The notes under the pieces: model-generated
Database searches by the model: none
What the model was told of the DNA's origin: nothing
Seen by the model: the letters and a program-made list of their open reading frames with translations, nothing else
Position numbers and translations under genes: made by a program
Source of the DNA: Desulfuromonadales bacterium
Lineage (GTDB): Bacteria > Desulfobacterota > JAENJC01
Length of the DNA stretch: 64,000 nucleotides
Reading direction: 5' to 3'
Assembly: GCA_919902985.1 (NCBI GenBank)
Contig: CAKKSC010000007.1
Coordinates: forward strand, 16,749 to 80,748
Shown here: positions 6,155-63,850 of the stretch, piece after piece
Layout: each line of letters begins with the position of its first letter
How positions within the stretch are numbered: the first letter of the stretch is position 1

Positions 6155-6167
6155 GGCACGATCTTGA

Positions 6168-6252
6168 AAATCCCCCTTAATCCCCCTTTTCCAAAGGGGG
6201 AAAAGTTAGGTCCCCCTCTTTGGCAAAGAGGGGTTAGGGGAGATTTTTGGAG
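6168..6252. repeat. poly-C/poly-G tandem hairpin repeat, copy a
   Basis: CCCCCTTTtccAAAGGGGG followed by CCCCTCTTTggcAAAGAGGGG, then AGGGGAGATTTT. Intergenic between gspF and the exeA-like gene. Confidence 0.7.
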
Positions 6253-6260
6253 TAGACTAA

Positions 6261-13436: not shown

Positions 13437-15434
13437 ATGAAAGAAAACAAGCTTGCAGAAGTAGCTGTCCCGGCCCCTCTTGACAGGACATTCCATTATC
13501 TCCTCCCTGAAACCCTCGCTGACAAAGCCGCAGTGGGGATGAGGGTTACTGTCCCCTTTGGCAGGAGGTCTGTGACAGGGTATATCGTCGGTTTTCCTAA
13601 GGATGAAGAACCTGATGATTCCTTTGAGTTGAAGGAGATCAAGGATTTCCCTGATCCTGAACCTGTTTTCAGCCCGGATATGCTCAAGCTTTACAAGTGG
13701 ATTGCTGACTACTATATTGCACCGTTGGGCGAGGTAATCAGCACGGCACTGCCGCCGATTATGAAGAGGATAAAAAAGCAGGGGGCAGTGGTCAGGGATC
13801 AGGGGTCAGTAAGAGTCGAACTGACGGAAATGCAGAGAGAGGCCTTTTCAACCATCATTGCTGCTATGGATGCGAACGAGTTTGCCCCTTACCTGCTTCA
13901 TGGCGTAACCGGCAGTGGAAAGACGGAAGTGTACCTGAGGGTAATTGAAGAGTCTCTTGCGCGAGGGAAGGGGGCCATTGTCCTTGTCCCTGAGATATCC
14001 CTTACGCCTCAGCTCCTGGGACGTTTCAGGTCTCGATTTGGTGATAAGGTGGCCGCCCTTCACAGTGCCCTGTCTGACGGCGAGAGGTATTCGGAGTGGA
14101 TGCGGATAAAAAGGGGGGAGGCCAGGATTGTTGTCGGGGCCAGGTCTGCAATATTTGCGCCCATGGATGAACTTGGCGTTCTGGTGGTGGATGAGGAACA
14201 CGACCATTCATACAAGCAGGAAGAATCTCCGCGATATAACGCCCGAGACCTTGCCGTTGTCAGGGGAAAGATGGTTAAAGGGGTTGTCGTACTTGGCTCC
14301 GCTACTCCGTCAATGGAGTCTTATCATAATGCAAAGACAGGAAAGTTTAATTACCTGAACCTCCCCCACAGGGTTGAGGAGCGACCTATGCCCCAGATCG
14401 CAGTAGTTGATATGAAGGATACAGGCAAAAGGCGGATTTTTTCCAGTCAAATGACGGAATCCTTGAACAGGTGTATCGGGGAGAAAAAGCAGGCGCTACT
14501 CTTTTTGAACAGGAGGGGATTTTCCACGTTCCTGATGTGTTCCGACTGTGGCTTCACCTTTGGCTGTCCCAATTGCAGCATATCTCTGATATACCACCAG
14601 GGAGAAGGGTTGCTCAGGTGTCATTACTGTGACTATGTACAAAAGGCCTTTCCTGTGTGTCCTGCCTGCAAAGGTGTAAATGTGGGGCATTTGGGCCTTG
14701 GGACCGAAAAGGTTGAGGACGAGATAAAAAAGTCCTTCCCCGATTCCAGGGTTGCCAGGATGGACAGGGATACGGTTTCAAGGAAAGGCTCCCACGAACG
14801 AATCCTCAAGAGGATGGAAGAGGGGGATCTGGACATACTTATAGGGACCCAGATGGTGACAAAGGGACATGACTATCCAAATATTACTATGGTTGGCGTT
14901 ATCTCTGCAGATATATCCTTAAACCTGCCCGATTTTAGAGCGGCTGAAAGGACATTCCAGCTTCTTACTCAGGTGTCGGGCAGGGCTGGAAGAGGAGACG
15001 TCCTTGGGAAGGTGATAATCCAGACATTTAACCCCGATCACTATAGCATTGTTGCTGCCAGGAGCCATGATCTGGATGGTTTTTACAGGGAGGAGACGAC
15101 CTTCAGGAAGGAACTGGGGTATCCTCCTTTTTCCAGACTGATAAGCATAAGGCTCAGGGGGAACAGCGAGGCCAGAACTGCCTTAGCCGCTAATAATCTT
15201 GGCGAGCTTGCCAGGAATGAGATGAAGGCGTGGAAGGGTGTAACCATACTTGGCCCCAGCAAGGCCACTATATATAAGATCCGAGGGAAATACCGCTGGC
15301 ATATCCTGGTCAAAGGAAAAGACAGCGGCAAGCTTCATTCCTTTGTAAGGAAGCTGATTTCTCTGACGAGGGAGGGGTCGGGTTTCAGGGGGGTTGAGCT
15401 ACAGGTGGATGTAGACCCGTTGAACATGCTTTAG
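13437..15434 (+). CDS. priA: primosomal protein N' (replication restart helicase PriA)
   Basis: Walker A GVTGSGKTEVY, DEEHD box, and a Cys-rich zinc-binding region CSDCGFTFGCPNCS...CHYCDY. Confidence 0.9.
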   Translation: MKENKLAEVAVPAPLDRTFHYLLPETLADKAAVGMRVTVPFGRRSVTGYIVGFPKDEEPDDSFELKEIKDFPDPEPVFSPDMLKLYKWIADYYIAPLGEVISTALPPIMKRIKKQGAVVRDQGSVRVELTEMQREAFSTIIAAMDANEFAPYLLHGVTGSGKTEVYLRVIEESLARGKGAIVLVPEISLTPQLLGRFRSRFGDKVAALHSALSDGERYSEWMRIKRGEARIVVGARSAIFAPMDELGVLVVDEEHDHSYKQEESPRYNARDLAVVRGKMVKGVVVLGSATPSMESYHNAKTGKFNYLNLPHRVEERPMPQIAVVDMKDTGKRRIFSSQMTESLNRCIGEKKQALLFLNRRGFSTFLMCSDCGFTFGCPNCSISLIYHQGEGLLRCHYCDYVQKAFPVCPACKGVNVGHLGLGTEKVEDEIKKSFPDSRVARMDRDTVSRKGSHERILKRMEEGDLDILIGTQMVTKGHDYPNITMVGVISADISLNLPDFRAAERTFQLLTQVSGRAGRGDVLGKVIIQTFNPDHYSIVAARSHDLDGFYREETTFRKELGYPPFSRLISIRLRGNSEARTALAANNLGELARNEMKAWKGVTILGPSKATIYKIRGKYRWHILVKGKDSGKLHSFVRKLISLTREGSGFRGVELQVDVDPLNML

Positions 15435-18891: not shown

Positions 18892-18967
18892 GCGGGCGTA
18901 GCGCAGCTGGTAGCGTAGAAGCTTCCCAAGCTTTTGGTCGCGGGTTCGAATCCCGTCGCCCGCTCCA
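18892..18967 (+). tRNA. tRNA-Gly (anticodon CCC)
   Basis: Cloverleaf folded by hand. Acceptor stem GCGGGCG/CGCCCGC, anticodon loop TTCCCAA, T-loop TTCGAAT, discriminator U and encoded CCA. Confidence 0.85.
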
Positions 18968-19008: not shown

Positions 19009-19068
19009 TTGCATGATAATTAACTTTGTGCTAAAAAAATAGGAGTATTAGCATCCGGGTATACAAAA

Positions 19069-19093
19069 GTGGGCGCGAGCCCACTTTTTTTTT
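19069..19093 (+). terminator. second rho-independent terminator
   Basis: GTGGGC-gcga-GCCCAC followed by a T9 run. Confidence 0.55.
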
Positions 19094-21469: not shown

Positions 21470-23840
21470 GATAAGGATTCACGAACTTGCGAAGGAATTG
21501 GGCTTGGAAAACAAGGATGTAATAGCCAAGTGCAAACAGCTTGGATTTGGAGATAAGAGCCCTTCTCACGGCCTTGAAAACAGCGAGGCGGATAGTGTCA
21601 GGAAGGCCTTTAAGCCCCGCGAAGAGGCCTTGCCGGAAGAGATGCAGATTGTTGTAGAGAAAAAGGTCACCCTTGAGGACAGGGAGTTGTCTGTTGAAGA
21701 AAGGCGGGTAAAGTCCACTGTTATCAGGAGGAGGACTAAAGAGATAGAGGTCAAGCCCCAGGTTGTCGAGCCGGTTGAGCCTGTTAAGGTTGAAAAGGTC
21801 CCAGCAGTCCATGAGCTTCCATCCGAGCTGGCGGAGGTTGCCGTTCCTGTGATAGGGCCGCAAATTCCAGAAATGCAGCTGGTGCGTGTCATTGAAGAAG
21901 AGAAGCCTAGGGAAGAGGCCACGGGGAAGAAGAAGGATAAGAAGGAGATACTTAAGAAGGTGGAAAGCTTGGAGCTCAAGGAGCGTGTGTTTAAACCCGT
22001 GCCCGCTTTCAGGGGAAAGAGGCGAGGGGCAAAGGCTGCGCCTGCGGCAGGTTCCAAGAAGACTGAGATAACAGTTCCCAAGGCTATAAAAAGGGTCATT
22101 AAGGTCTCGGACGTGATACAGGTCGGGGAACTGGCCAAGAGGATGGGGATTAAGGCGGGTGAGGTTATAAAGAAGCTGTTCGGGCTTGGTATCATGGCCA
22201 CGATAAACCAATCAGTTGACATAGATGCTGCTACCCTTATCGCCCAGGACTTCGGGTACGAGGTCGAGAGGGTTGGAATGGAGATAGTGGAGGAAATGCT
22301 TGAAGAGACTGCGGATATAGCCGAGAATAAGGTTTTGAGGCCTCCCGTAGTTACAGTTATGGGTCATGTTGACCACGGTAAGACATCACTTCTGGACGCC
22401 ATAAAACAGACCGATGTGGCTGCAGGAGAGGCTGGGGGGATAACGCAGCATATAGGTGCCTATCACGTGAAACTCGATAAGGGAGACCTTGTGTTTCTGG
22501 ATACACCAGGGCATGAGGCGTTCACTGCCATGAGGGCGAGGGGTGCCCAGGTTACCGACTTTGTTGTCCTTGTGGTTGCTGCTGACGATGGGGTAATGCC
22601 CCAGACTGTGGAGGCCATAAACCATGCCAAGGCAGCCAACGTTCCGATCATTGTTGCGGTCAACAAGATAGACAAGCCTGGCGCCAACCCTGATAAGGTT
22701 AAACAGTCTTTATCCGAGCATGGACTTCAACCTGAGGGTTGGGGAGGGGACACCATCTTTGTGAATGTCTCTGCAAAACAGAGGACTGGGATCAAGGAAC
22801 TCCTTGAGATGATAATCCTTCAGGCAGAGGTAATGCAGCTTAAGGCCAACCCTGACAAGTTTGCCAAGGGAACTATAATAGAGGCAAGGCTTGACAAGGG
22901 TAGAGGGCCTGTGGCAACTGTCCTAGTTCAGGAGGGGACCCTTAAGGTAGGAGACCCCTTCGTTGCAGGGGTCCACTACGGAAGGGTCAGGGCCATGCTT
23001 GACGACAAAGGGGCAAAGGTTCTGGAGGCAGGCCCATCAATGCCGGTGGAGGTGCAGGGCCTTCCTGGAGTGCCTCAGGCTGGAGAGAGGTTCGTAGTCG
23101 TCTCTGATGAGAAAAAGGCAAAGGAGATAGGAACATACAGGCAGATGAAGCAGAGGGAGACTGAACTTTCCAAGAGCAGCAAGGTCTCTCTTGAGGACCT
23201 CTACAATAAGATAAAAGATGGAGAGGTAAAAGAACTGGGGATCATCATCAAGGCCGATGTTCATGGTTCCGTAGAAGCATTGACCGAGTCACTCCAGAAG
23301 CTCTCGACCGACGCTATAAAACTGAAGGTGCTTCACGGTTCCGTTGGGGCCATAACAGAGACCGACGTGCTTCTGGCTGCTGCTTCCAACGCCATAATAA
23401 TAGGTTTCCATGTCCGCCCTGATGTCAAGGTGCAGGCGTTGGCAGATGAAGAAGGGGTGGATGTAAGGCTTTACAGCATTATCTATGAGGTCACGGAGGA
23501 TGTGAAGAAGGCCATGGAGGGCCTCCTTGCACCGACCATCAAGGAGGTAGTCCTTGGAAGGGCTGAGATCAGGGAGATATTCAGCGTTCCAAAGATTGGG
23601 AACATCGGCGGCTGCTTTGTGACGGATGGAAAGATAACGAGAGGCTCCATGATAAGGCTTATAAGGGACGGGATAGTGATCCATGACGGCAAGCTGGCCT
23701 CCTTGAGAAGGTTCAAGGACGATGTTAAAGAGGTGCAGTCCGGGTATGAATGCGGTATCGGCATAGAGAACTATAACGACATCAAGACCGGTGATGTGAT
23801 TGAGGCTTATATACACGAAAAGATAGCAGCAAAATTATAG
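21462..23840 (+). CDS. infB: translation initiation factor IF-2
   Basis: GTP-binding domain [25 protein letters not shown]. Start at [13 protein letters not shown] (ATG 21462), after a GGGGGTGGA RBS. Confidence 0.95.
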
Positions 23841-23907
23841 TGGACAGTGGCCGGTGATCGGTGATCAGTTGATGCCGACCACTGACGTCTGACCACTGAC
23901 CACTGAA
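23841..23907. repeat. heptamer-array inverted pair (GTGGNCN x4 / CTGACCA x4) directly after the infB stop
   Basis: (GTGGACA)(GTGGCCG)(GTGATCG)(GTGATCA)...(CCGACCA)(CTGACGT)(CTGACCA)(CTGACCA). The arms are imperfectly complementary. Confidence 0.7.
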
Positions 23908-24200: not shown

Positions 24201-24272
24201 ACCGTGAGCCGTGAACTGTGAGGCGTAAGGAGTAAAGAATTATAAACACACCACACGTCTCACGTCTTACGG
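24201..24272. repeat. heptamer-array inverted pair (CCGTGAG-type / CTCACGT-type)
   Basis: (CCGTGAG)(CCGTGAA)(CTGTGAG)(GCGTAAG), then a 29-nt spacer, then (CACACGT)(CTCACGT)(CTTACGG). Lies between the DUF503 gene and rbfA. Confidence 0.7.
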
Positions 24273-24280
24273 ATTTTATT

Positions 24281-24655: not shown

Positions 24656-25592
24656 GGAACTACAAAACAACAATACCTTTCTGATTGTATCCCATATTAA
24701 CCCTGATGGAGATGCCATAGGCTCGTCGCTTGCCCTTGCAGCCGGTCTAACGGCCACAGGGAAAAAGGTTACTGTATTCAACAATGACAGTGTCCCTGAT
24801 ATAGTCAGATTTTTACCTGGCTCAAGCGAGATAGTACATGAACTATTAGCTGGCGATCAGTTTGATGCTGCCATTGTTGTGGACTGCGGCACCCCGAAGC
24901 AGCTTGGCGATAAGTTCAATGCCTTCAAGGGTTACAAGAAACTCCTTAATATAGACCACCATGCAACAAACCTCAATTTTGCAGATGTAGTTTTCCTTGA
25001 CCCCGATGCCTGTGCCACAGGGGCGATGATTTACAGGATACTCAAGAGTATGCAGGTTGAGATAACAAGGGCGATCGCCCTGTCTATTTACACAACCATT
25101 GTTGTGGATACCGGCTCCTTCCATTATGGAAACTCAAACCCGGAGGCTTTCAGGATCGCAGGTGAGATGGTGGATATAGGAGTTGAGCCGTGGTTTGTGG
25201 CTGAAAACCTTTATGAGAGCCAGCCTGAAGGAAGGATAAGGCTTCATTCTATGGCGTTAAATACCCTCACCACCCATTATGACGGCAAGATCGGGTTCAT
25301 CATGGTATCAAAAGAGATGTACAAGGCCACTGGGACAACGGCAGAGGACACAGACGGGATTGTGAATTATGCCAGGTCTCTGAGGGGTGTGGAGGTGGCA
25401 ATATTTATTAGAGAGATATCACCTGATAAGTACAAGGCCTCTCTCCGCTCCAAGGGTAGGGTGGATGTTACAAAGATTGCGGGAAGGTATGACGGAGGAG
25501 GTCATGTTAACGCAGCAGGCTGTGTGCTTAAGGGAAGCCTGCCGGAGGTAAAGAAGAATCTGTTAGAGGCAACTGAGGAGATACTGAAATAA
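24636..25592 (+). CDS. DHH/DHHA1 phosphoesterase (NrnA-like oligoribonuclease/pAp phosphatase)
   Basis: DHH motifs SHINPDGDAIGS and NIDHH. DHHA1 GGGH motif near the C-terminus. Confidence 0.8.
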   Translation: MMERIVKELQNNNTFLIVSHINPDGDAIGSSLALAAGLTATGKKVTVFNNDSVPDIVRFLPGSSEIVHELLAGDQFDAAIVVDCGTPKQLGDKFNAFKGYKKLLNIDHHATNLNFADVVFLDPDACATGAMIYRILKSMQVEITRAIALSIYTTIVVDTGSFHYGNSNPEAFRIAGEMVDIGVEPWFVAENLYESQPEGRIRLHSMALNTLTTHYDGKIGFIMVSKEMYKATGTTAEDTDGIVNYARSLRGVEVAIFIREISPDKYKASLRSKGRVDVTKIAGRYDGGGHVNAAGCVLKGSLPEVKKNLLEATEEILK

Positions 25593-25594
25593 AA

Positions 25595-25676
25595 GTGCAA
25601 AATGTAAAATGCAAATGATAAAATTAATACACCTCCATTTTACGCTTTACACTTTGAAATTTGCACTTTGAAATTT
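25595..25676. repeat. AT-rich heptamer-array inverted pair (TGCAAAA-type / CACTTTG-type)
   Basis: (TGCAAAA)(TGTAAAA)(TGCAAAT)...(CATTTTA)(CGCTTTA)(CACTTTG)(AAATTTG)(CACTTTG). Lies between nrnA and truB. Confidence 0.65.
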
Positions 25677-26897: not shown

Positions 26898-27026
26898 AGA
26901 CTATTCACGCAAAGACGCAAAGAGCGCAAAGATAAATAGAAATGGACTAAATCCTTTCTTGGCGTACTGGCGCCTTTGCGAGCAGAATATGGTTTTTGAG
27001 TTGAATAATAATATAAGGTCCGCAAA

Positions 27027-30661: not shown

Positions 30662-30742
30662 GTTTGTTCCTCCCCTTGCCAAGGGGAGGCTGGGTGGGGT
30701 AAATCCACCACCCCTGCCCCTCCTTATCAAGGAGGGGATTAT
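30662..30742. repeat. poly-C/poly-G tandem hairpin repeat, copy d
   Basis: CCTCCCCTTgccAAGGGGAGG ... CCCCTCCTTatcAAGGAGGGG. Confidence 0.65.
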
Positions 30743-32150: not shown

Positions 32151-32175
32151 AGGCGGGGGATTCCCCGCCTTTTTG
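32151..32175 (+). terminator. rho-independent terminator
   Basis: AGGCGGGG-gatt-CCCCGCCT followed by TTTTT. Confidence 0.6.
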
Positions 32176-37310: not shown

Positions 37311-37372
37311 TAAAATGCAAAATGCAAAATTAAAAACTAAAATTTGCAATTTACAATTTGCATTTGATCAAC
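37311..37372. repeat. AT-rich heptamer-array inverted pair that encodes the PilW leader
   Basis: (ATGCAAA)(ATGCAAA)(ATTAAAA)(ACTAAAA)(TTTGCAA)(TTTACAA)(TTTGCAT). Translated as MQNAKLKTKICNLQFAFDQ. Confidence 0.6.
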
Positions 37373-45438: not shown

Positions 45439-45542
45439 GGGCTCTATATGTAGAGCTTTTTATATAATTTAACATAATTATGCTTAATTTATAATAATTA
45501 GATTTGACACAGTGTATGAATTATGGAATTTTATAGTGCAAT

Positions 45543-45797
45543 ATGAAGCAGAATATAAACAACGTTAGGAAGTTGAGAGAGGCCAAGCTGATGAGCAAGG
45601 CCGAATTGGCAAGAAAGGCCGGGATATCAGTCCTGACAGTGGACAGAATAGAGAAGGGTCACCCATGCAGGCTGGACACGAAAAGGAAGGTGGTCATTGC
45701 CCTGGGTCTCAGGGTTCCTGAGGCGGACAAGGTTTTTAAGAGCAGCCAGAAATCAGAAGACAGGGGTCAGGGGTCAAGGGTCAGGGGTCAGAAGTAA
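45543..45797 (+). CDS. XRE-family helix-turn-helix transcriptional regulator
   Basis: HTH LMSKAELARKAGISVLTVDRIEKG. The C-terminal tail GQGSRVRGQK is encoded by a GGGGTCA heptamer array. Confidence 0.6.
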   Translation: MKQNINNVRKLREAKLMSKAELARKAGISVLTVDRIEKGHPCRLDTKRKVVIALGLRVPEADKVFKSSQKSEDRGQGSRVRGQK

Positions 45798-45855
45798 CCG
45801 TGAGGTTAATATCATTAGCTTTTACCTCTCACGTCTTACGTTTCACGTCTCACGG
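45761..45855. repeat. composite heptamer arrays: (CAGGGGT)x5 in the XRE C-terminus, then a CCGTGAGG / CTCACG inverted pair
   Basis: CAGGGGTCAGGGGTCAAGGGTCAGGGGTCAGAAGT...CCGTGAGG...CCTCTCACGTCTTACGTTTCACGTCTCACGG. Upstream of pilM. Confidence 0.7.
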
Positions 45856-45872
45856 AAGTTATAGGGGTTTAA

Positions 45873-48124: not shown

Positions 48125-48195
48125 TAGTGGTCAGTTGTCAGTGGTCAGTGGTCAGATTTGTCTAATGCTTATCTCTTACTGCTTATTGCTTACTG
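48125..48195. repeat. heptamer arrays (AGTGGTC x4, then CTTACTG x4) spanning the pilO-pilP junction
   Basis: The second array encodes the PilP signal peptide. The arrays are complementary in RNA only if G-U pairs are allowed. Confidence 0.6.
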
Positions 48196-48668
48196 TTGTT
48201 ACGGGATGCAACAAAGAAGAGGTTGCGCCAGCCCAGGTTGCGCCGGTCAAAAAGGTTGTTGCGCCTGTGCAGACCTCAGTAACTACCGAAAAAATGCCTG
48301 AGTATGTCTATAACCCGGCAGGCAAGAGAGATCCATTTAAATCTTTTATAGAAGTAGTTACAAGTAAAAGGGAGCGTGCAGTTGCTCCGATAACACCTCT
48401 TCAGAGTTATGACCTGGCGGCCCTCAGGCTTGTGGGGATCATGCTGCTGCCCGGGAAGAGGGTAGCAATAATAGAGGACCCCACAGGTAAAGGCTACCAC
48501 GTTAAAGTAGGGACATCAATAGGAATGAACGATGGGGTAGTAGTTGAGATTTTAAAGGATGAGTTGATCGTTGAAGAGAAATACCTGGATGAAACTGCAC
48601 AAACAAAGGCAAGAAAGGTTTCAGTAAAGATCCCGAAAGAAGAGGATAGAGGAGGAGAAGGCCGATGA
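48165..48668 (+). CDS. pilP: type IV pilus assembly lipoprotein PilP
   Basis: Signal peptide with lipobox LLLTVVTGC at ATG 48165. C-terminal beta-domain. Overlaps pilQ. Confidence 0.7.
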   Translation: MLISYCLLLTVVTGCNKEEVAPAQVAPVKKVVAPVQTSVTTEKMPEYVYNPAGKRDPFKSFIEVVTSKRERAVAPITPLQSYDLAALRLVGIMLLPGKRVAIIEDPTGKGYHVKVGTSIGMNDGVVVEILKDELIVEEKYLDETAQTKARKVSVKIPKEEDRGGEGR

Positions 48669-51694: not shown

Positions 51695-52960
51695 ATGAGC
51701 ACTCTGAGATATCTGACTGCTGGCGAGTCGCACGGTAAAGGACTATCAGCTTTAATGGAGGGTATTCCGGCTAACCTTGAATTAACAGCTGAGTATATTA
51801 ACAATGAACTTGCCCGCCGACAGATGGGTTATGGACGCGGTGGAAGGATGAAGATCGAGACCGATACCGCGGAGATACTTTCAGGTATAAGGTTTGGCAG
51901 GACACTTGGCTCACCTATAGCCCTGTTCATTGAAAACAGAGATTGGGAAAACTGGCAGGAAGTGATGAGTTCACCCCCCCCTCAATCCCCCCCTTTAATA
52001 AAAGGGGGGGTAGAGGGAGTTGTCACCCGCCCCCGCCCAGGCCATGCAGACCTTTCTGGCGCAATCAAGTACAACCAAAAGGACATCAGGAACATATTAG
52101 AGAGGTCGAGTGCGCGGGAGACGGCTGCAAGGGTAGCAGTAGGTTCTGTTGCAAAAAAACTTCTTGAGGAGTTCGGCATAAGGGTTTTCAGCTGGGTTAC
52201 AGAGATAGGAGGACAGCAGTGGTCAGAGGTCAGTGGTCGGAGCTCAGTCTATTACTCGCCGCTCCTCGCTTCTCGCTCCTCGCTTTCTGAGTTATACGAG
52301 AAGGCTGAAAAATCCGAGGTTAGATGTCCAGATGCGGCAGCAACAGAGGCCATTAAGAAAAGGATAGACGAGGCCAGAAACAGCGGAGATTCTCTCGGCG
52401 GAATATTTGAGATTGTCGTAAGCGGCGCTCCGGTTGGCCTTGGGAGTCACGTCCAGTTTGACAGGAAGCTGAATGCGAGGCTTTCCATGGCCCTTATGAG
52501 CATACAGGCTATCAAAGGGGTAGAGTTTGGACTTGGATTTGAGGCGGCGACACGGCACGGCTCTGAGGTGCATGATGAGATATGCTTCAGGGGTCAGGGG
52601 TCAGGGGTCAAGGGTCAGGAATTCAAACCACCGACCACTGGGTTTTACAGGAAGACCAACAATGCGGGTGGCATAGAGGGCGGGATGTCGAATGGTGAGG
52701 ATATAGTCATCAGGGCGGCAATGAAACCGATACCTACTCTGTATAAACCGCTTCGCTCAGTGGACATAGTAACAAAAGAGGTCTTTGAGGCCACTGTCGA
52801 GAGGTCGGATATATGTGCCGTCCCAGCCGCTTCAGTTGTGGGCGAAGCCGTTGTAGCTTTCGAGATCGCCAATGCCGTGCTTGATAAATTCGCCGGCGAC
52901 TCGATGGAAGAGATGATGAAGAATTACAACAGCTATATGGAATATGTGAAGGGGTTTTAG
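51695..52960 (+). CDS. aroC: chorismate synthase (carrying three in-frame repeat insertions)
   Basis: Motifs [33 protein letters not shown]. 421 aa versus about 360-390 for typical AroC. Confidence 0.9.
51972..52036. repeat. poly-C/poly-G hairpin repeat, copy g, in frame inside aroC
   Basis: CCCCCCCCTCAATCCCCCCCTTTaataAAAGGGGGGGTAGAGGGAG. Translated as [19 protein letters not shown] immediately before the conserved RPGHAD motif. Confidence 0.7.
52216..52288. repeat. heptamer arrays (CAGTGGT x3, then TCCTCGC x4) in frame inside aroC
   Basis: Translated as [26 protein letters not shown]. There is about 20 aa extra here relative to canonical AroC. Confidence 0.6.
52588..52619. repeat. (GGGGTCA)x4 array in frame inside aroC
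   Basis: CAGGGGTCAGGGGTCAGGGGTCAAGGGTCAGG translated as GQGSGVKGQ. The same unit occurs at 45761. Confidence 0.65.
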
Positions 52961-52983: not shown

Positions 52984-53100
52984 TAACTCCCCTCCCTTGG
53001 CGGGAGGGGATTGAGAGGAGGGGGATCGAATTTGGTGACGTTTCACCCTCACCCTGACCCTCTACCCATCCGGGCATAAATCCCGTCAAGGGAGAGGGAA
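52984..53100. repeat. poly-C/poly-G tandem hairpin repeat, copy f
   Basis: CCCCTCCCttggcgGGAGGGGA...GAGGAGGGGG...CCCTCACCCTGACCCTCTACCCATCCGGGCATAAATCCCGTCAAGGGAGAGGG. Between aroC and aroK. Confidence 0.65.
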
Positions 53101-53106
53101 AATTAT

Positions 53107-53619
53107 TTGAAGAAGAATATTGTCCTTACCGGCTTCATGGGCACAGGTAAGACCTCTACAGGCAGAGTATTAGCAATGAAGCTTGGAACAAGGTTTATAG
53201 ATACCGATAAGCTGATTGAAAAAGAGGCCGGGACTCTCATCCGTGAGATATTTAAAAAGTTAGGAGAGCCGCATTTCAGAGGTCTTGAAAGGGAGATAGT
53301 AAGAAAGGTTTCAGAGGAAAACGGAGTAGTTATAGCAGTCGGAGGTGGGGCGATCGTGAATCCCGCTAATCTTGCAGATCTAAAAAGGCACGGGATAGTG
53401 GTATCGCTTACTGCCTCACCTGAGGTGATTCTATCCAGGGTTGAGAGGAATTTAGACCGACCGCTCCTCAAGGTTGAAGATAAGTTAGGAAAGATAAAAG
53501 AGTTGATTGCGGTCAGGGCGCATTTTTATGAGAAGTCGGATATCACGGTTGACACTGATTTTAAGAACCCCGAGCAGGTGGCAGATGAGATTTTAGAGGC
53601 CGTAAGACGTGAGATGTAA
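53107..53619 (+). CDS. aroK: shikimate kinase
   Basis: NIVLTGFMGTGKTSTGRVLA. TTG start in the track. Confidence 0.85.
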   Translation: MKKNIVLTGFMGTGKTSTGRVLAMKLGTRFIDTDKLIEKEAGTLIREIFKKLGEPHFRGLEREIVRKVSEENGVVIAVGGGAIVNPANLADLKRHGIVVSLTASPEVILSRVERNLDRPLLKVEDKLGKIKELIAVRAHFYEKSDITVDTDFKNPEQVADEILEAVRREM

Positions 53620-58130: not shown

Positions 58131-59177
58131 ATGACGGCAGAAATTAAAGATGATGCACCTATTCCGCCTGAGATAAACAAATACCTGGCAATTCTCAGTA
58201 AAGATCCCGGCTCGATGGTGTTCGCGCCACTGGCGGAGGCCTACAGGAAGGCTGGGATGCTGGATGAGGCGATTGCAACTGCCAGGGACGGCTTGAAGCT
58301 CCGTCCTGACTATGTGAGCGGAATGGTTGCCCTCGGGAGGGCATATTTTGAAAAGGGTTTATTGGCCGAGGCCAGAGAAAACCTGGAGAAGGTGCTTATA
58401 ATTGCGCCGGACAACATCATTGCAGCCGGGATATTAGAGGAGATAAAAAGCAAGTGGTCAGTGGTCAGGGGCCAGGGGCCAGAAAAGCCGGAACCTGTTA
58501 CCCCTGACCTTGAACCTGACAAGGCAGTCAGTCAGGAGTCAGAAGTCGGCAGTCAGAAGATAGATGAGCCGGAGATTGAAGAACTCACTGAACTGGAAGA
58601 GTTTATAGAGTTAGAAGAGGTAGATGCAGAAGAAAAGTCGGGAGATTTTCAGGTTGAGGAGATAAGCTTTGAGGCCCCGGAACCTGGATTGGGGCTTGCA
58701 AAAGAGGTAAAAGAGACAGAGGAAGAGAAAACTGCGGAAGATATAGGCATATGGGGGGAAGAAGCTGCAAGCGAGTTGGAAGCGGAACCGGCGATATCCG
58801 AGGTCATTGAACCTGAAGCACAGTTAAGAAGCCCGGAGGTTGAGGAGAAAGAGGCAAGGTCAAGGAAGGAAATAACCACAGAGACCATTGCCGACCTATA
58901 TATAAAGCAGGGCTATTTTGACAAGGCTATTGACATATACCAGACCCTGTATGATGCTGACCCTGGAAATGATGATATAAAGAGGAAACTTGATGAACTG
59001 AAAAAGCAGTTGTCAGGGGTCAGTGATCAGGGGGCAGAGGTAAAGAGACCAGAGGAAGAGTTAGTGGTAAGGTGGGCTGAGTCGACCGGACAAGGAGCGG
59101 AACTCAAAACTGATGAGAATATAGACAGGCTGGGATCATGGCTTAAGACAATTCAGAGCGAGAGGCGGAAGGGCTGA
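58131..59177 (+). CDS. TPR-repeat protein with acidic linker
   Basis: TPR repeats at the N-terminus and C-terminus. The E/P-rich middle region is partly encoded by heptamer arrays. Confidence 0.55.
   Translation: MTAEIKDDAPIPPEINKYLAILSKDPGSMVFAPLAEAYRKAGMLDEAIATARDGLKLRPDYVSGMVALGRAYFEKGLLAEARENLEKVLIIAPDNIIAAGILEEIKSKWSVVRGQGPEKPEPVTPDLEPDKAVSQESEVGSQKIDEPEIEELTELEEFIELEEVDAEEKSGDFQVEEISFEAPEPGLGLAKEVKETEEEKTAEDIGIWGEEAASELEAEPAISEVIEPEAQLRSPEVEEKEARSRKEITTETIADLYIKQGYFDKAIDIYQTLYDADPGNDDIKRKLDELKKQLSGVSDQGAEVKRPEEELVVRWAESTGQGAELKTDENIDRLGSWLKTIQSERRKG
58454..58558. repeat. heptamer arrays (AGTGGTC x2, AGGGGCC x2; inverted CCCCTGACC; AGTCAGN x5) in frame inside the TPR gene
   Basis: Translated as WSVVRGQGPEKPEPVTPDLEPDKAVSQESEVGSQK. 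Confidence 0.6.
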
Positions 59178-61278: not shown

Positions 61279-61327
61279 GTAGAAACAGGCCTTTAGGCCT
61301 GTTAACATGGCTGAAGCCTGTTTCTAC
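61279..61327. repeat. 50-nt palindromic module GTAGAAACAGG...CCTGTTTCTAC (copy 1, efp-accB spacer)
   Basis: Outer 11-bp stem. The inner arm AACAGGCC can alternatively pair with GGCCTGTT. A second copy lies at 61850..61899. Confidence 0.6.
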
Positions 61328-61809: not shown

Positions 61810-61922
61810 GAGACGTAAATCGTAAACCATGAGCCGTGAGCTGTGTGTCGTAGAAACATGGCTTTAGCCATGTCAACAGGCCTGAAGACCTGTTTCTACA
61901 AGGATTTAAGATTTACGTTTTT
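61810..61922. repeat. composite structured element: complementary outer heptamer arms enclosing a 50-nt palindromic module
   Basis: Left arm GAGACGTAAATCGTAAACC. Right arm GGATTTAAGATTTACGTTTTT. Inner module GTAGAAACA...TGTTTCTAC with nested hairpins. Confidence 0.6.
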
Positions 61923-63265: not shown

Positions 63266-63371
63266 GATAAAAAGCAGGCGAAGGTAAGAAGCTGAGAAGG
63301 TGAGAAGATGGAAGCTCAACCCCTTAATTTCTCAACCTCTCAACTTCATAATTAGAAAAGGAGGTATAGCA

Positions 63372-63767: not shown

Positions 63768-63850
63768 TTGCAAACTGTAAATTGCAAAATTAAGATGTGG
63801 ATTAGAAAGCTTTTTGTACTTTTCACTTTGCATTTTGCAATTTGAAATCT
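63768..63850. repeat. AT-rich heptamer-array inverted pair after gcvH
   Basis: (TTGCAAA)(CTGTAAA)(TTGCAAA)ATT...(CACTTTG)(CATTTTG)(CAATTTG)AAATC. Confidence 0.6.

Follow-up and report, generated by a model that had tools for sequence, protein, structure and literature searches.

Tandem heptanucleotide arrays at operon junctions and permissive coding sites in an uncultured Thermodesulfobacteriota lineage

Introduction

In cyanobacteria, short tandemly repeated repetitive (STRR) sequences occur as short dispersed tandem arrays, with several heptamer flavours in one genome; their units, in the work of Mazel and colleagues of 1990, are reportedly CCCCAGT (STRR1), TTGGTCA (STRR2) and CAACAGT (STRR3). 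Repetitive extragenic palindromes and bacterial interspersed mosaic elements (REP/BIME), known from enterobacteria and pseudomonads, have a conserved consensus of 20-40 nt and are associated with RAYT transposases. The palindromic elements of Rickettsia, an obligate intracellular bacterium, are said to have been described by Ogata and colleagues in 2000 as inserts of 100-150 nt and fixed sequence. Here we analyze tandem heptamer arrays, frequently arranged as inverted pairs between genes, in a 64,000-nt stretch of contig CAKKSC010000007.1 (hereafter, the window), whose host is an uncultured bacterium of the sulfate-reducer type, represented by a Thermodesulfobacteriota metagenome-assembled genome (MAG).

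Other heptamer repeats have been characterized outside the cyanobacteria. Heptanucleotides are given as the most abundant class of long simple sequence repeats (LSSRs) in repeat-rich bacterial genomes, with slippage as their proposed origin, according to Mrazek 2007 as relayed in PMC4679880 and PMC4692102, the latter of which also cites the heptanucleotide STRRs of Calothrix; the three Calothrix units were the first example of the kind. The GGGAATC repeat of Xanthomonas lies mostly between co-directional open reading frames (ORFs), at most 50 bp from a stop codon or overlapping it, usually with about four units, and 70-75 convergent pairs per genome are potential stem-loops; 7-11 % of its arrays are intragenic, most are transcribed, and both length and sequence vary between Xcc and Xac (Rehm et al. 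2015, PMC4692102). In marine Beggiatoaceae, two to six copies of TAACTGA overlap upstream stop codons, a few nucleotides before start codons that mostly have no Shine-Dalgarno (SD) sequence, are sometimes translated at the termini or periphery of proteins, and have a patchy distribution across phyla (MacGregor 2015, PMC4679880).

Judged by the sequence features described below, the arrays of the window belong to the known heptanucleotide LSSR/STRR class, in a new lineage and with new units. We consider it probable that they are mainly products of mutational pressure, or 'genomic weeds', that any effects on mRNA structure are secondary, and that they are not terminators. Arrays are retained only at harmless positions, which are the stop-start junctions of tightly packed operons and, translated in frame, probable surface loops, linkers, tails and signal peptides of proteins.

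Results

Abundance, periodicity and placement of the arrays

Tandem Repeats Finder returned 20 period-7 rows in the window. These include all 11 loci at which an original prediction, made from the letters of this DNA, had placed heptamer arrays; one more array, in priA (13778-13809), had been missed by it. A period detector with a threshold score of at least 10 found 16 arrays of period 7 where 0.2 were expected from 30 dinucleotide-preserving shuffles, and the arrays are therefore non-random. At the same threshold periods 4-13 otherwise yielded 0-2 arrays each, and period 14 is a harmonic of 7. LSSRs are defined by units of 5-11 nt that follow one another in tandem, over more length than chance would give in the genome concerned. 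Tandem 7-nt units beyond chance, an excess of period 7 over the neighbouring periods, and polymorphism among related genomes in both sequence and copy number (from 1 to about 33 at orthologous sites) are the marks of heptanucleotide LSSRs, and they are found here. Although period 7 is uniquely enriched, the strict periodicity first read from the sequence was overstated, as an inverted pair of period 8 occupies 63287-63344, between accC and gcvH; the repeat-hairpin phenomenon is therefore not strictly heptameric.

Both the comparison with STRRs and the view that the gene content is not cyanobacterial, which came with the original prediction, proved sound: the class is the same and the units differ, the product of aroC is 100 % identical to a protein from a 'Deltaproteobacteria bacterium' MAG (P0001), and the NrnA orthologues, at 76-93 % identity, make up a tight clade in which some are named Thermodesulfobacteriota or Deltaproteobacteria. 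Below this clade, identity jumps down to about 51 %, for Geobacter-like sequences. The relatives that we compared belong to a clade at 75-93 % protein identity and are represented by syntenic loci of the pilY1-accC region (L201-L206) and of the nusA-pnp region (L207-L211). In addition, a search for PriA homologues with a truncated query, which returned mainly partial or distant proteins, yielded L212, an independent assembly of the same population that is 99.85 % identical over 20.6 kb. This assembly is indel-rich, differing by homopolymer indels, and served as an artefact control, being unsuited to microevolution. Since the arrays of priA, of the infB/DUF503 spacer and of the DUF503/rbfA spacer are base-for-base identical in L212, the arrays are not assembly artefacts.

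According to a hand-curated gene map, 10 of the 20 arrays are found in intergenic DNA, which makes up 7.0 % of the window (binomial p = 3e-7). The remaining 10 lie in coding sequence, in frame, at sites in priA, aroC (twice), a gene for a TPR protein, the C-terminus of an XRE regulator, the probable prepilin leader of PilW and the signal peptide of PilP. The association with stop codons was likewise borne out in part: the distance from the upstream stop to the first unit is -2 to +10 nt in eight cases at gene ends, but the arrays at 52216, 52588 and 58454 do not follow stop codons and are in frame inside aroC and the TPR gene. The 3' arm of the elements stops 3-16 nt short of the next start codon. 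An intergenic element thus spans essentially its entire spacer, and closeness to stop codons therefore partly reflects spacer size.

The units in the window comprise a CAGNNGT group (GTGGTCA, GGGGTCA, AGTCAGC), CGTGAGA, TGCAAAA, CTTACTG and CGCTCCT, to which the relatives add GAGTTCA, AAAACTC and TCATCCC/GGGATGA. With this repertoire, G-quadruplex (G4) regulatory repeats, as proposed for GGGAATC of Xanthomonas and GGGGAYT of Nostoc, are a very improbable explanation. Such a structure calls for four or more tracts of at least three G with short loops between them, and two arrays, (CAGGGGT)4 at 45761 and (TCAGGGG)4.7 at 52587, do have these; arrays also commonly comprise about four units, as in Xanthomonas (PMC4692102). 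However, the other 18 arrays have no G-tracts, with GTGGTCA, CGTGAGA, TGCAAAA, CTTACTG and CGCTCCT being incapable of forming such structures, and one of the two capable arrays is inside aroC.

Intergenic elements and their folding

The elements between genes are listed below, with folding z-scores obtained for each locus against 200 dinucleotide shuffles.

23839-23906, + strand: infB/DUF503 spacer, inverted pair of a GTGGTCA-type arm and a TGACCAC arm
24202-24274, + strand: DUF503/rbfA spacer, inverted pair of CGTGAG-type arrays, z = -3.6
25592-25676, + strand: nrnA/truB spacer, inverted pair of TGCAAAA-type arrays, z = -1.9
37312-37365, + strand: pilV/pilW, AAAATGC and AATTTGC arrays after pilV, z = -0.6
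45798-45856, + strand: XRE/pilM spacer, CCGTGAGG ... (CTCACGT)4, one left unit and a four-unit right array
48126-48155, + strand: pilO/pilP spacer, (GTGGTCA)4 after the pilO stop and before the pilP ATG (48165), without a complementary partner
61814-61922, + strand: accB/accC, CGTAAAY/CGTGAGC arrays and a complementary right arm, z = -4.3
63287-63344, + strand: accC/gcvH spacer, period-8 inverted arrays GAGAAGNT and TCTCAACN, z = -1.45
63769-63848, + strand: after gcvH, inverted pair of TGCAAAY-type arrays 8 nt past the gcvH stop, z = -1.6

The infB/DUF503 element illustrates the arrangement. Positions 23841-23907 read TAG followed by TGGACAGTGGCCGGTGATCGGTGATCAGTTGATGCCGACCACTGACGTCTGACCACTGACCACTGA, namely, GTGGTCA-like units, a short loop and TGACCAC units; the first unit overlaps the TAG stop of infB, the element ends 4 nt before the ATG of DUF503, and the RNA fold has -31.7 kcal/mol (z = -4.9). 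A reverse-complement partner had been described for every locus, and this was found at about half of them. First, clear hairpins are restricted to four loci, namely, infB/DUF503, DUF503/rbfA, the TPR gene and accB/accC (z from -3.5 to -4.9), with weak ones at nrnA/truB and after gcvH. Second, the elements at pilV/pilW, XRE/pilM and pilO/pilP, the two sites of aroC and the priA array fold no better than their shuffles (z from +1.1 to -1.4). Third, the second array at 45761, 48126 and 52217 has a different, non-complementary unit (CTCACGT, CTTACTG and CGCTCCT, respectively). Imperfect palindromes, a REP/BIME-type feature, are therefore present at about six of 12 loci, the others being unpaired or coding.

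Genes downstream of the elements show weak pairing with the anti-SD sequence, with a mean of -3.5 versus -7.0 kcal/mol (Mann-Whitney p = 0.009, n = 7 versus 46), and relatives with empty alleles have coupled junctions of the classical kind (TAACTTATG, TGAATG). The elements might be functional RNA hairpins of REP/BIME type inside operons, which would protect the mRNA segments upstream of them against 3' exonucleases, mark processing sites or couple translation, in the last case because the downstream start would stay masked as long as the upstream ribosome had not opened the 5' arm. Several observations agree with this: the four strong loci; the position of the 5' arm at, or no more than 10 nt from, the stop, and of the 3' arm 3-16 nt before a start that usually has no SD sequence; the fact that relatives retain some hairpin element at a junction even when its family differs; the arms of infB/DUF503, which in the window, L208 and L210 differ in copies yet pair; and the transcription of most heptamer repeats in Xanthomonas (PMC4692102). 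Nevertheless, we find this explanation unlikely. Half of the loci fold no better than shuffles, and arrays also occur unpaired within coding regions. Folding is not biased toward the sense strand either: that strand is the more stable one for only five of 14 elements, the mean difference is +0.2 kcal/mol, and sense and antisense thus fold equally, with no sign of selection at the level of the sense RNA. Moreover, some relatives have spacerless junctions (3 nt in L210, stop/start overlap in L208), and the hairpin is therefore dispensable. At the gathering threshold, Rfam 15 matched none of the repeats in the window, its only hit being a tRNA at 18892-18964.

Turnover of the elements at orthologous junctions

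Within the 75-93 % clade, arrays expand, contract, collapse to a seed unit and switch unit, and their hot spots are also occupied by small palindromic elements of several unrelated kinds. At infB/DUF503, the loop is common to the window, L208 and L210, and both arms vary in copy number, giving spacers of 70, 49 and 73 nt, respectively; a CGTGAGA-type hairpin is found at this position in L211 and a small unrelated palindrome in L207. The DUF503/rbfA spacer has a GAGGGAT/ATCCCTC heptamer hairpin in L208, three differing non-heptamer palindromic elements in L207, L209 and L211, and 3 nt only in L210 (TAA-CTT-ATG). At nrnA/truB, the stop and the start overlap in L208, GTGGTCA-like arrays are present in L207 and L209, and the 273-nt spacer of L211 (5467-5739) consists of about 33 GGGATGA units with a short complementary arm. 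Lastly, the pilO/pilP spacer has nothing in L202, (GGGGTCA)3 and (CTCACGT)4 in L201, and degenerate copies in L203. By contrast, no arrays are present at truB/rpsO, a junction that carries a conserved 69-nt leader, in any of the window, L207 and L208.

Density varies to a similar degree, from no array in 15 kb (L204) and one in 11 kb (L202) to six per 10 kb (L205). The aroC product of L202 is 89 % identical to that of the window.

The GGGATGA array of L211, from a 77 % relative, is by far the longest that we observed. It is rich in GGA motifs, and one may speculate that its transcript could act as a sponge for a CsrA-type protein. At the same junction L210 has a GAGAAGT hairpin that resembles the period-8 pair of the window.

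Arrays inside coding sequence

The in-frame arrays are the following.

13778-13809, + strand: priA array, CAGNNGT-type, in frame, amino acids 114-125 KQGAVVRDQGSV
45747-45791, + strand: C-terminal tail of the XRE regulator, encoded by (CAGGGGT)4
48166-48195, + strand: PilP lipoprotein signal peptide, (CTTACTG)4 encoding MLISYCLLLTVVTGC
52217-52284, + strand: aroC site i2, (CAGTGGT)3, conserved centre GTCTATTACTC and (CGCTCCT)3.6, in frame
52587-52642, + strand: aroC site i3, (TCAGGGG)4.7 (52587-52617) and degenerate right arm CCACCGACCACTGGG with TGA changed to CGA, translated
58453-58567, + strand: TPR-protein gene, in frame, (GTGGTCA)2(GGGGCCA)2, partial complement CCCCTGACCTTGAACCTGAC and (AGTCAGR)4, z = -3.5

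The priA array falls in the linker that joins the 3'BD and helicase domains. The probable ATG of pilW (37315, with AGGAG 8 nt upstream) is within the first array of its element, which would probably encode the prepilin leader MQNAKLKTKICNLQFAFDQRG/F. The CAGGGGT units at XRE/pilM number four in the window, one in L201, about three in L203 and none in L202, where CGTAAAC units take their place. At the position corresponding to that of pilP in the window, L205 has five copies of CTTACTG.

For aroC, we used an alignment of 25 chorismate synthases plus a codon-level alignment. The enzymes have three hypervariable patches, two of which are heptamer arrays and the third of which is, in the window, a palindrome of the CCCCCTTTAATAAAAGGGGG type; the patches are missing in homologues of 74-78 % identity and are gaps in the Aquifex structure 1q1l. 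At site i2 the arms are not complementary, and the whole insertion is absent in L204 and other homologues. Its centre, GTCTATTAYTC, is conserved at the codon level; the window flanks it with (CAGTGGT) and (CGCTCCT), and L205 and L206 with (GAGTTCR) and (TCATCCC), again as non-complementary arms. Site i3 has single-seed alleles in L203 (AGTCAG) and L204 (CAGGGT), and arrays of (AGGGGTC)4 in the window and L201, (AGTGGYC)4 in L206 and (AGTCAGC)4 in L205, all of these units being variants of CAGNNGT. In L202, site i3 is occupied by an unrelated palindromic element, 'ISPDPSLLKRGKSSPPLEKGDKGG', of the C5-7/G5-7 family.

Selection on the reading frame is apparent in these copies. Because a complete GTGGTCA or CGTGAGA hairpin has one arm with stops in all three frames, intact pairs occur only between genes and the coding copies fold poorly; where TGACCAC-type right arms are translated, the codon alignment has CGA in place of TGA, a signature of selection for an open frame. 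Any change by one unit shifts the frame, and the arrays of aroC and priA are therefore a liability rather than a device, which argues for a strong mutational input filtered by selection.

The PilP signal peptide is a case of its own, as its hydrophobic core derives from a (CTTACTG)4-5 array both in the window (48165-48209) and in L205 (6912-6947), where a simple repeat apparently supplies a functional signal peptide.

The turnover just described also bears on whether the elements are non-autonomous, resembling REPs or miniature inverted-repeat transposable elements (MITEs), moved in trans by a single-stranded-DNA transposase, with heptamer periodicity as a secondary feature. That the same units recur in numerous phyla and at many sites with no relation to each other speaks for mobility, as do the several palindromic families held by the hot-spot junctions and aroC loops, and the 50-nt palindromic element (61850-61899) nested in the loop of the accB/accC hairpin, with a second copy 570 nt away. 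Despite this, mobility appears rather improbable to us: we saw no target-site duplications, conserved termini or fixed length, copy number and unit identity vary continuously, and no transposase was noted in the window, although no search aimed at one was made. Furthermore, the single-seed alleles of aroC i3 resemble the collapse or birth of a simple sequence repeat (SSR), not excision, and the arms of aroC i2 switched unit around a conserved centre. One candidate target-site duplication, the 12-nt tandem TTAAAAAATAGT before the pilO/pilP element, is ordinary flanking sequence by comparison with L203.

Terminators and translational context

It had been proposed that the hairpins replace canonical terminators at gene ends, and the data do not support this proposal. 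It is true that hairpins form near stop codons, and in Xanthomonas G4-capable heptamers coincide with transcript starts or stops at a somewhat higher rate than control repeats do (PMC4692102). However, a terminator pattern scan of the window flagged none of the heptamer hairpins, which have no T-tracts and are followed by tails such as GAATTTATGG and GGATTTTATT. The same window has classical terminators, with a GC stem and a T run, at 19065-19088, 30717-30737, 32151-32170 and 45439-45458, all of them at operon boundaries. The heptamer elements are situated within conserved operons (infB-DUF503-rbfA-nrnA-truB and pilMNOPQ), directly before SD-less starts, and also inside ORFs; thus, neither the stem with a T run nor the position at the end of a transcription unit that define rho-independent termination is found in them. 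The arrays in frame in the essential genes priA and aroC, where termination would be lethal, also speak against a role in termination, as do the empty sites in relatives, whose junctions are of 3 nt or overlapping. We regard it as very improbable that the elements are terminators.

A promoter within the AT-rich TGCAAAA arrays was also considered and rejected: the candidate TTGAAA-16-TATTAT overlaps the truB ATG, so that a transcript start could not be accommodated, and matches of this kind did not exceed those in shuffles. The tRNA gene (18892-18964, 67 bits in Rfam) is located just upstream of the terminator at 19065-19088 and of the rimP-nusA-infB operon.

Distribution across genomes

GTGGTCA is not specific to this lineage, a question that the original prediction had left to database searches. 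An exact scan for (GTGGTCA)3G, with one genome per species, gave at least 120 loci, and the matches listed include Acidobacteriota, Planctomycetota, Chloroflexota, Verrucomicrobiota, Cyanobacteria, Bacteroidales, Nitrospinota and Deltaproteobacteria MAGs, that is, at least six phyla, with Coleofasciculus, Microcoleus, Calothrix and Argonema among the cyanobacterial carriers. Once the selected array is removed, the 120 listed loci have about 27 period-7 arrays of many other units per 100 kb, close to the roughly 25 per 100 kb of the window, and 1-4 per 100 kb for other periods. As an unselected background we used 80 DUF503 loci from a metagenome scan with the DUF503 protein, which served for this only, as its best relatives were 58 % identical and thus too distant for site comparison; these loci have four period-7 arrays per 100 kb. 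The difference between selected and unselected loci implies that heptamer richness characterizes genomes as a whole and is not confined to one lineage. Within heptamer-rich genomes, among the matches listed, period 7 reaches 40.7 per 100 kb, against 0.7-3.7 for other periods.

When rotated, a number of units share a CAGT/GTCAG core: CAGTGGT and CAGGGGT of the window, CAGTCCC of STRR1, CAGTCAA of STRR3 and, as the reverse complement of TAACTGA, CAGTTAT. This core may hint at a common sequence bias in the repeat generator.

Other small repeats in the window and its relatives

A palindromic element of about 48 nt, GTAGAAAC...GTTTCTAC, has two copies 570 nt apart, one in the efp/accB spacer (61279-61327) and one in the loop of the accB/accC heptamer hairpin (61850-61899), with fold z-scores of -7.1 and -5.0, respectively. 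Between the copies the inner sub-hairpins CAGGCC and CATGGC are swapped with pairing kept, and the element looks like a small dispersed mobile repeat. C5-7/G5-7 palindromes of the CCCCCTTTAATAAAAGGGGG type are found at 51971-52022, translated in frame as amino acids 93-109 of aroC, and at 6169-6240, the latter being part of a double copy in the 6155-6260 spacer (z from -3.5 to -3.7); the family is also present at intergenic junctions of L209.

Three arrays have no obvious inverted partner, namely, (ACGCAAAG)3 in the rpsO/pnp leader (26907-26932), (TCACCC)4 in front of the gene at 53107 (53043-53067) and, upstream of the XRE gene, an AT-rich array of period 10 (45459-45499). The relatives have at least three further palindromic families, GTAGGGGCAACC...GGCCGTCCCTAC, CACCAAGACAC.../...GTGTCTTGGTG and CCCTCTCCCGCAAGGGGCGAGGG, located at 4068-4145 of L207, 4035-4130 of L211, 6423-6593 of L210 and site i1 of aroC in L203 and L205. 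The genomes of the clade thus host a diverse community of small hairpin repeats, which share junctions and the aroC loop.

Discussion

The origin of the arrays that we favor, mutational pressure, would involve the following steps. First, arrays would grow by replication slippage that favors 7-nt units. Second, intrastrand template switching (quasipalindrome correction) or inverted duplication could give rise to an inverted arm and maintain its similarity to the first. Third, the resulting self-folding insert would be tolerated in translationally coupled junctions with weak SD sequences, because the upstream stop and the downstream start stay close to each other.

Several points weigh against this account. 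Pure slippage in situ explains neither the recurrence of a few units at many unrelated sites, nor the presence of GTGGTCA in at least six phyla among the matches listed, nor the appearance of a complementary arm. The pairing of infB/DUF503 is kept in the window, L208 and L210 despite copy-number differences in both arms, which could reflect selection for the hairpin. No array variation is seen at 99.85 % identity, in the three arrays of L212, so that instability is invisible on short time scales, and the SD comparison rests on seven genes. Unit recurrence, together with the coordinated arm lengths at infB/DUF503, therefore leaves room for a REP-like RNA role or for mobilization in trans.

A bolder version, which we put forward as quite unlikely, is that an active DNA-level mechanism, sequence-biased toward the GTCAG/CAGT core and operating across at least six phyla, writes self-complementary repeats, both these arrays and the other small palindromic families of their hot spots, into junctions and loops, where the hairpin would be selected for preserving translational coupling. 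If this were true, new linkers, tails and signal peptides would quite generally originate from these repeats, which would also provide a tractable system for the 35-year-old question of how STRR-type repeats originate.

With the mutational-pressure reading preferred, the comparison of relatives still provides snapshots of a repeat life cycle, from seed through expansion, unit switching and collapse to replacement by other palindromes. The arrays are also a source of variation in protein length, in chorismate synthase, PriA, a lipoprotein signal peptide and the C-terminus of a regulator. In practical terms, they can be expected to cause annotation errors, such as wrong starts, fused or split ORFs and spurious 'GQWSVVSGQ/LTTDH' peptides, and heptamer hairpins should not be annotated as terminators.

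Compared with known systems, these arrays extend STRR-type heptamers to an uncultured Thermodesulfobacteriota clade. They resemble cyanobacterial STRRs in the coexistence of flavours as dispersed arrays, and GTGGTCA is one base from the STRR2 unit TTGGTCA. However, no unit of the window is identical to canonical STRR1, STRR2 or STRR3 when rotations are compared, the host is not a cyanobacterium, and inverted pairing and coding copies are not defining features of STRRs. REP/BIME elements are likewise imperfect palindromes in operon spacers near stops, variable between strains and without a T-tract; about half of the loci here have such palindromes, and their arms are SSR arrays of variable unit and length. 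Like the Rickettsia elements, they are small in-frame inserts translated at permissive places in conserved genes, although here the inserts are tandem heptamers of changing unit and copy number.

The TAACTGA repeat of Beggiatoaceae is similar in its overlap with stops, the weak SD sequences of the following starts, its peripheral translated copies and its distribution across phyla. It differs in being a single unit found almost only as direct repeats, with one inverted case, whereas the window has many units and frequent inverted pairs. The GGGAATC arrays of Xanthomonas correspond in their 7-nt units of about four copies, their stop-proximal position between co-directional ORFs, their inverted pairs, an intragenic minority and variation between species. 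In that gammaproteobacterium, however, a single G-rich, G4-capable unit is involved, while the window has many units, most of them not G4-capable, and adds in-frame arrays in housekeeping enzymes and in a signal peptide.

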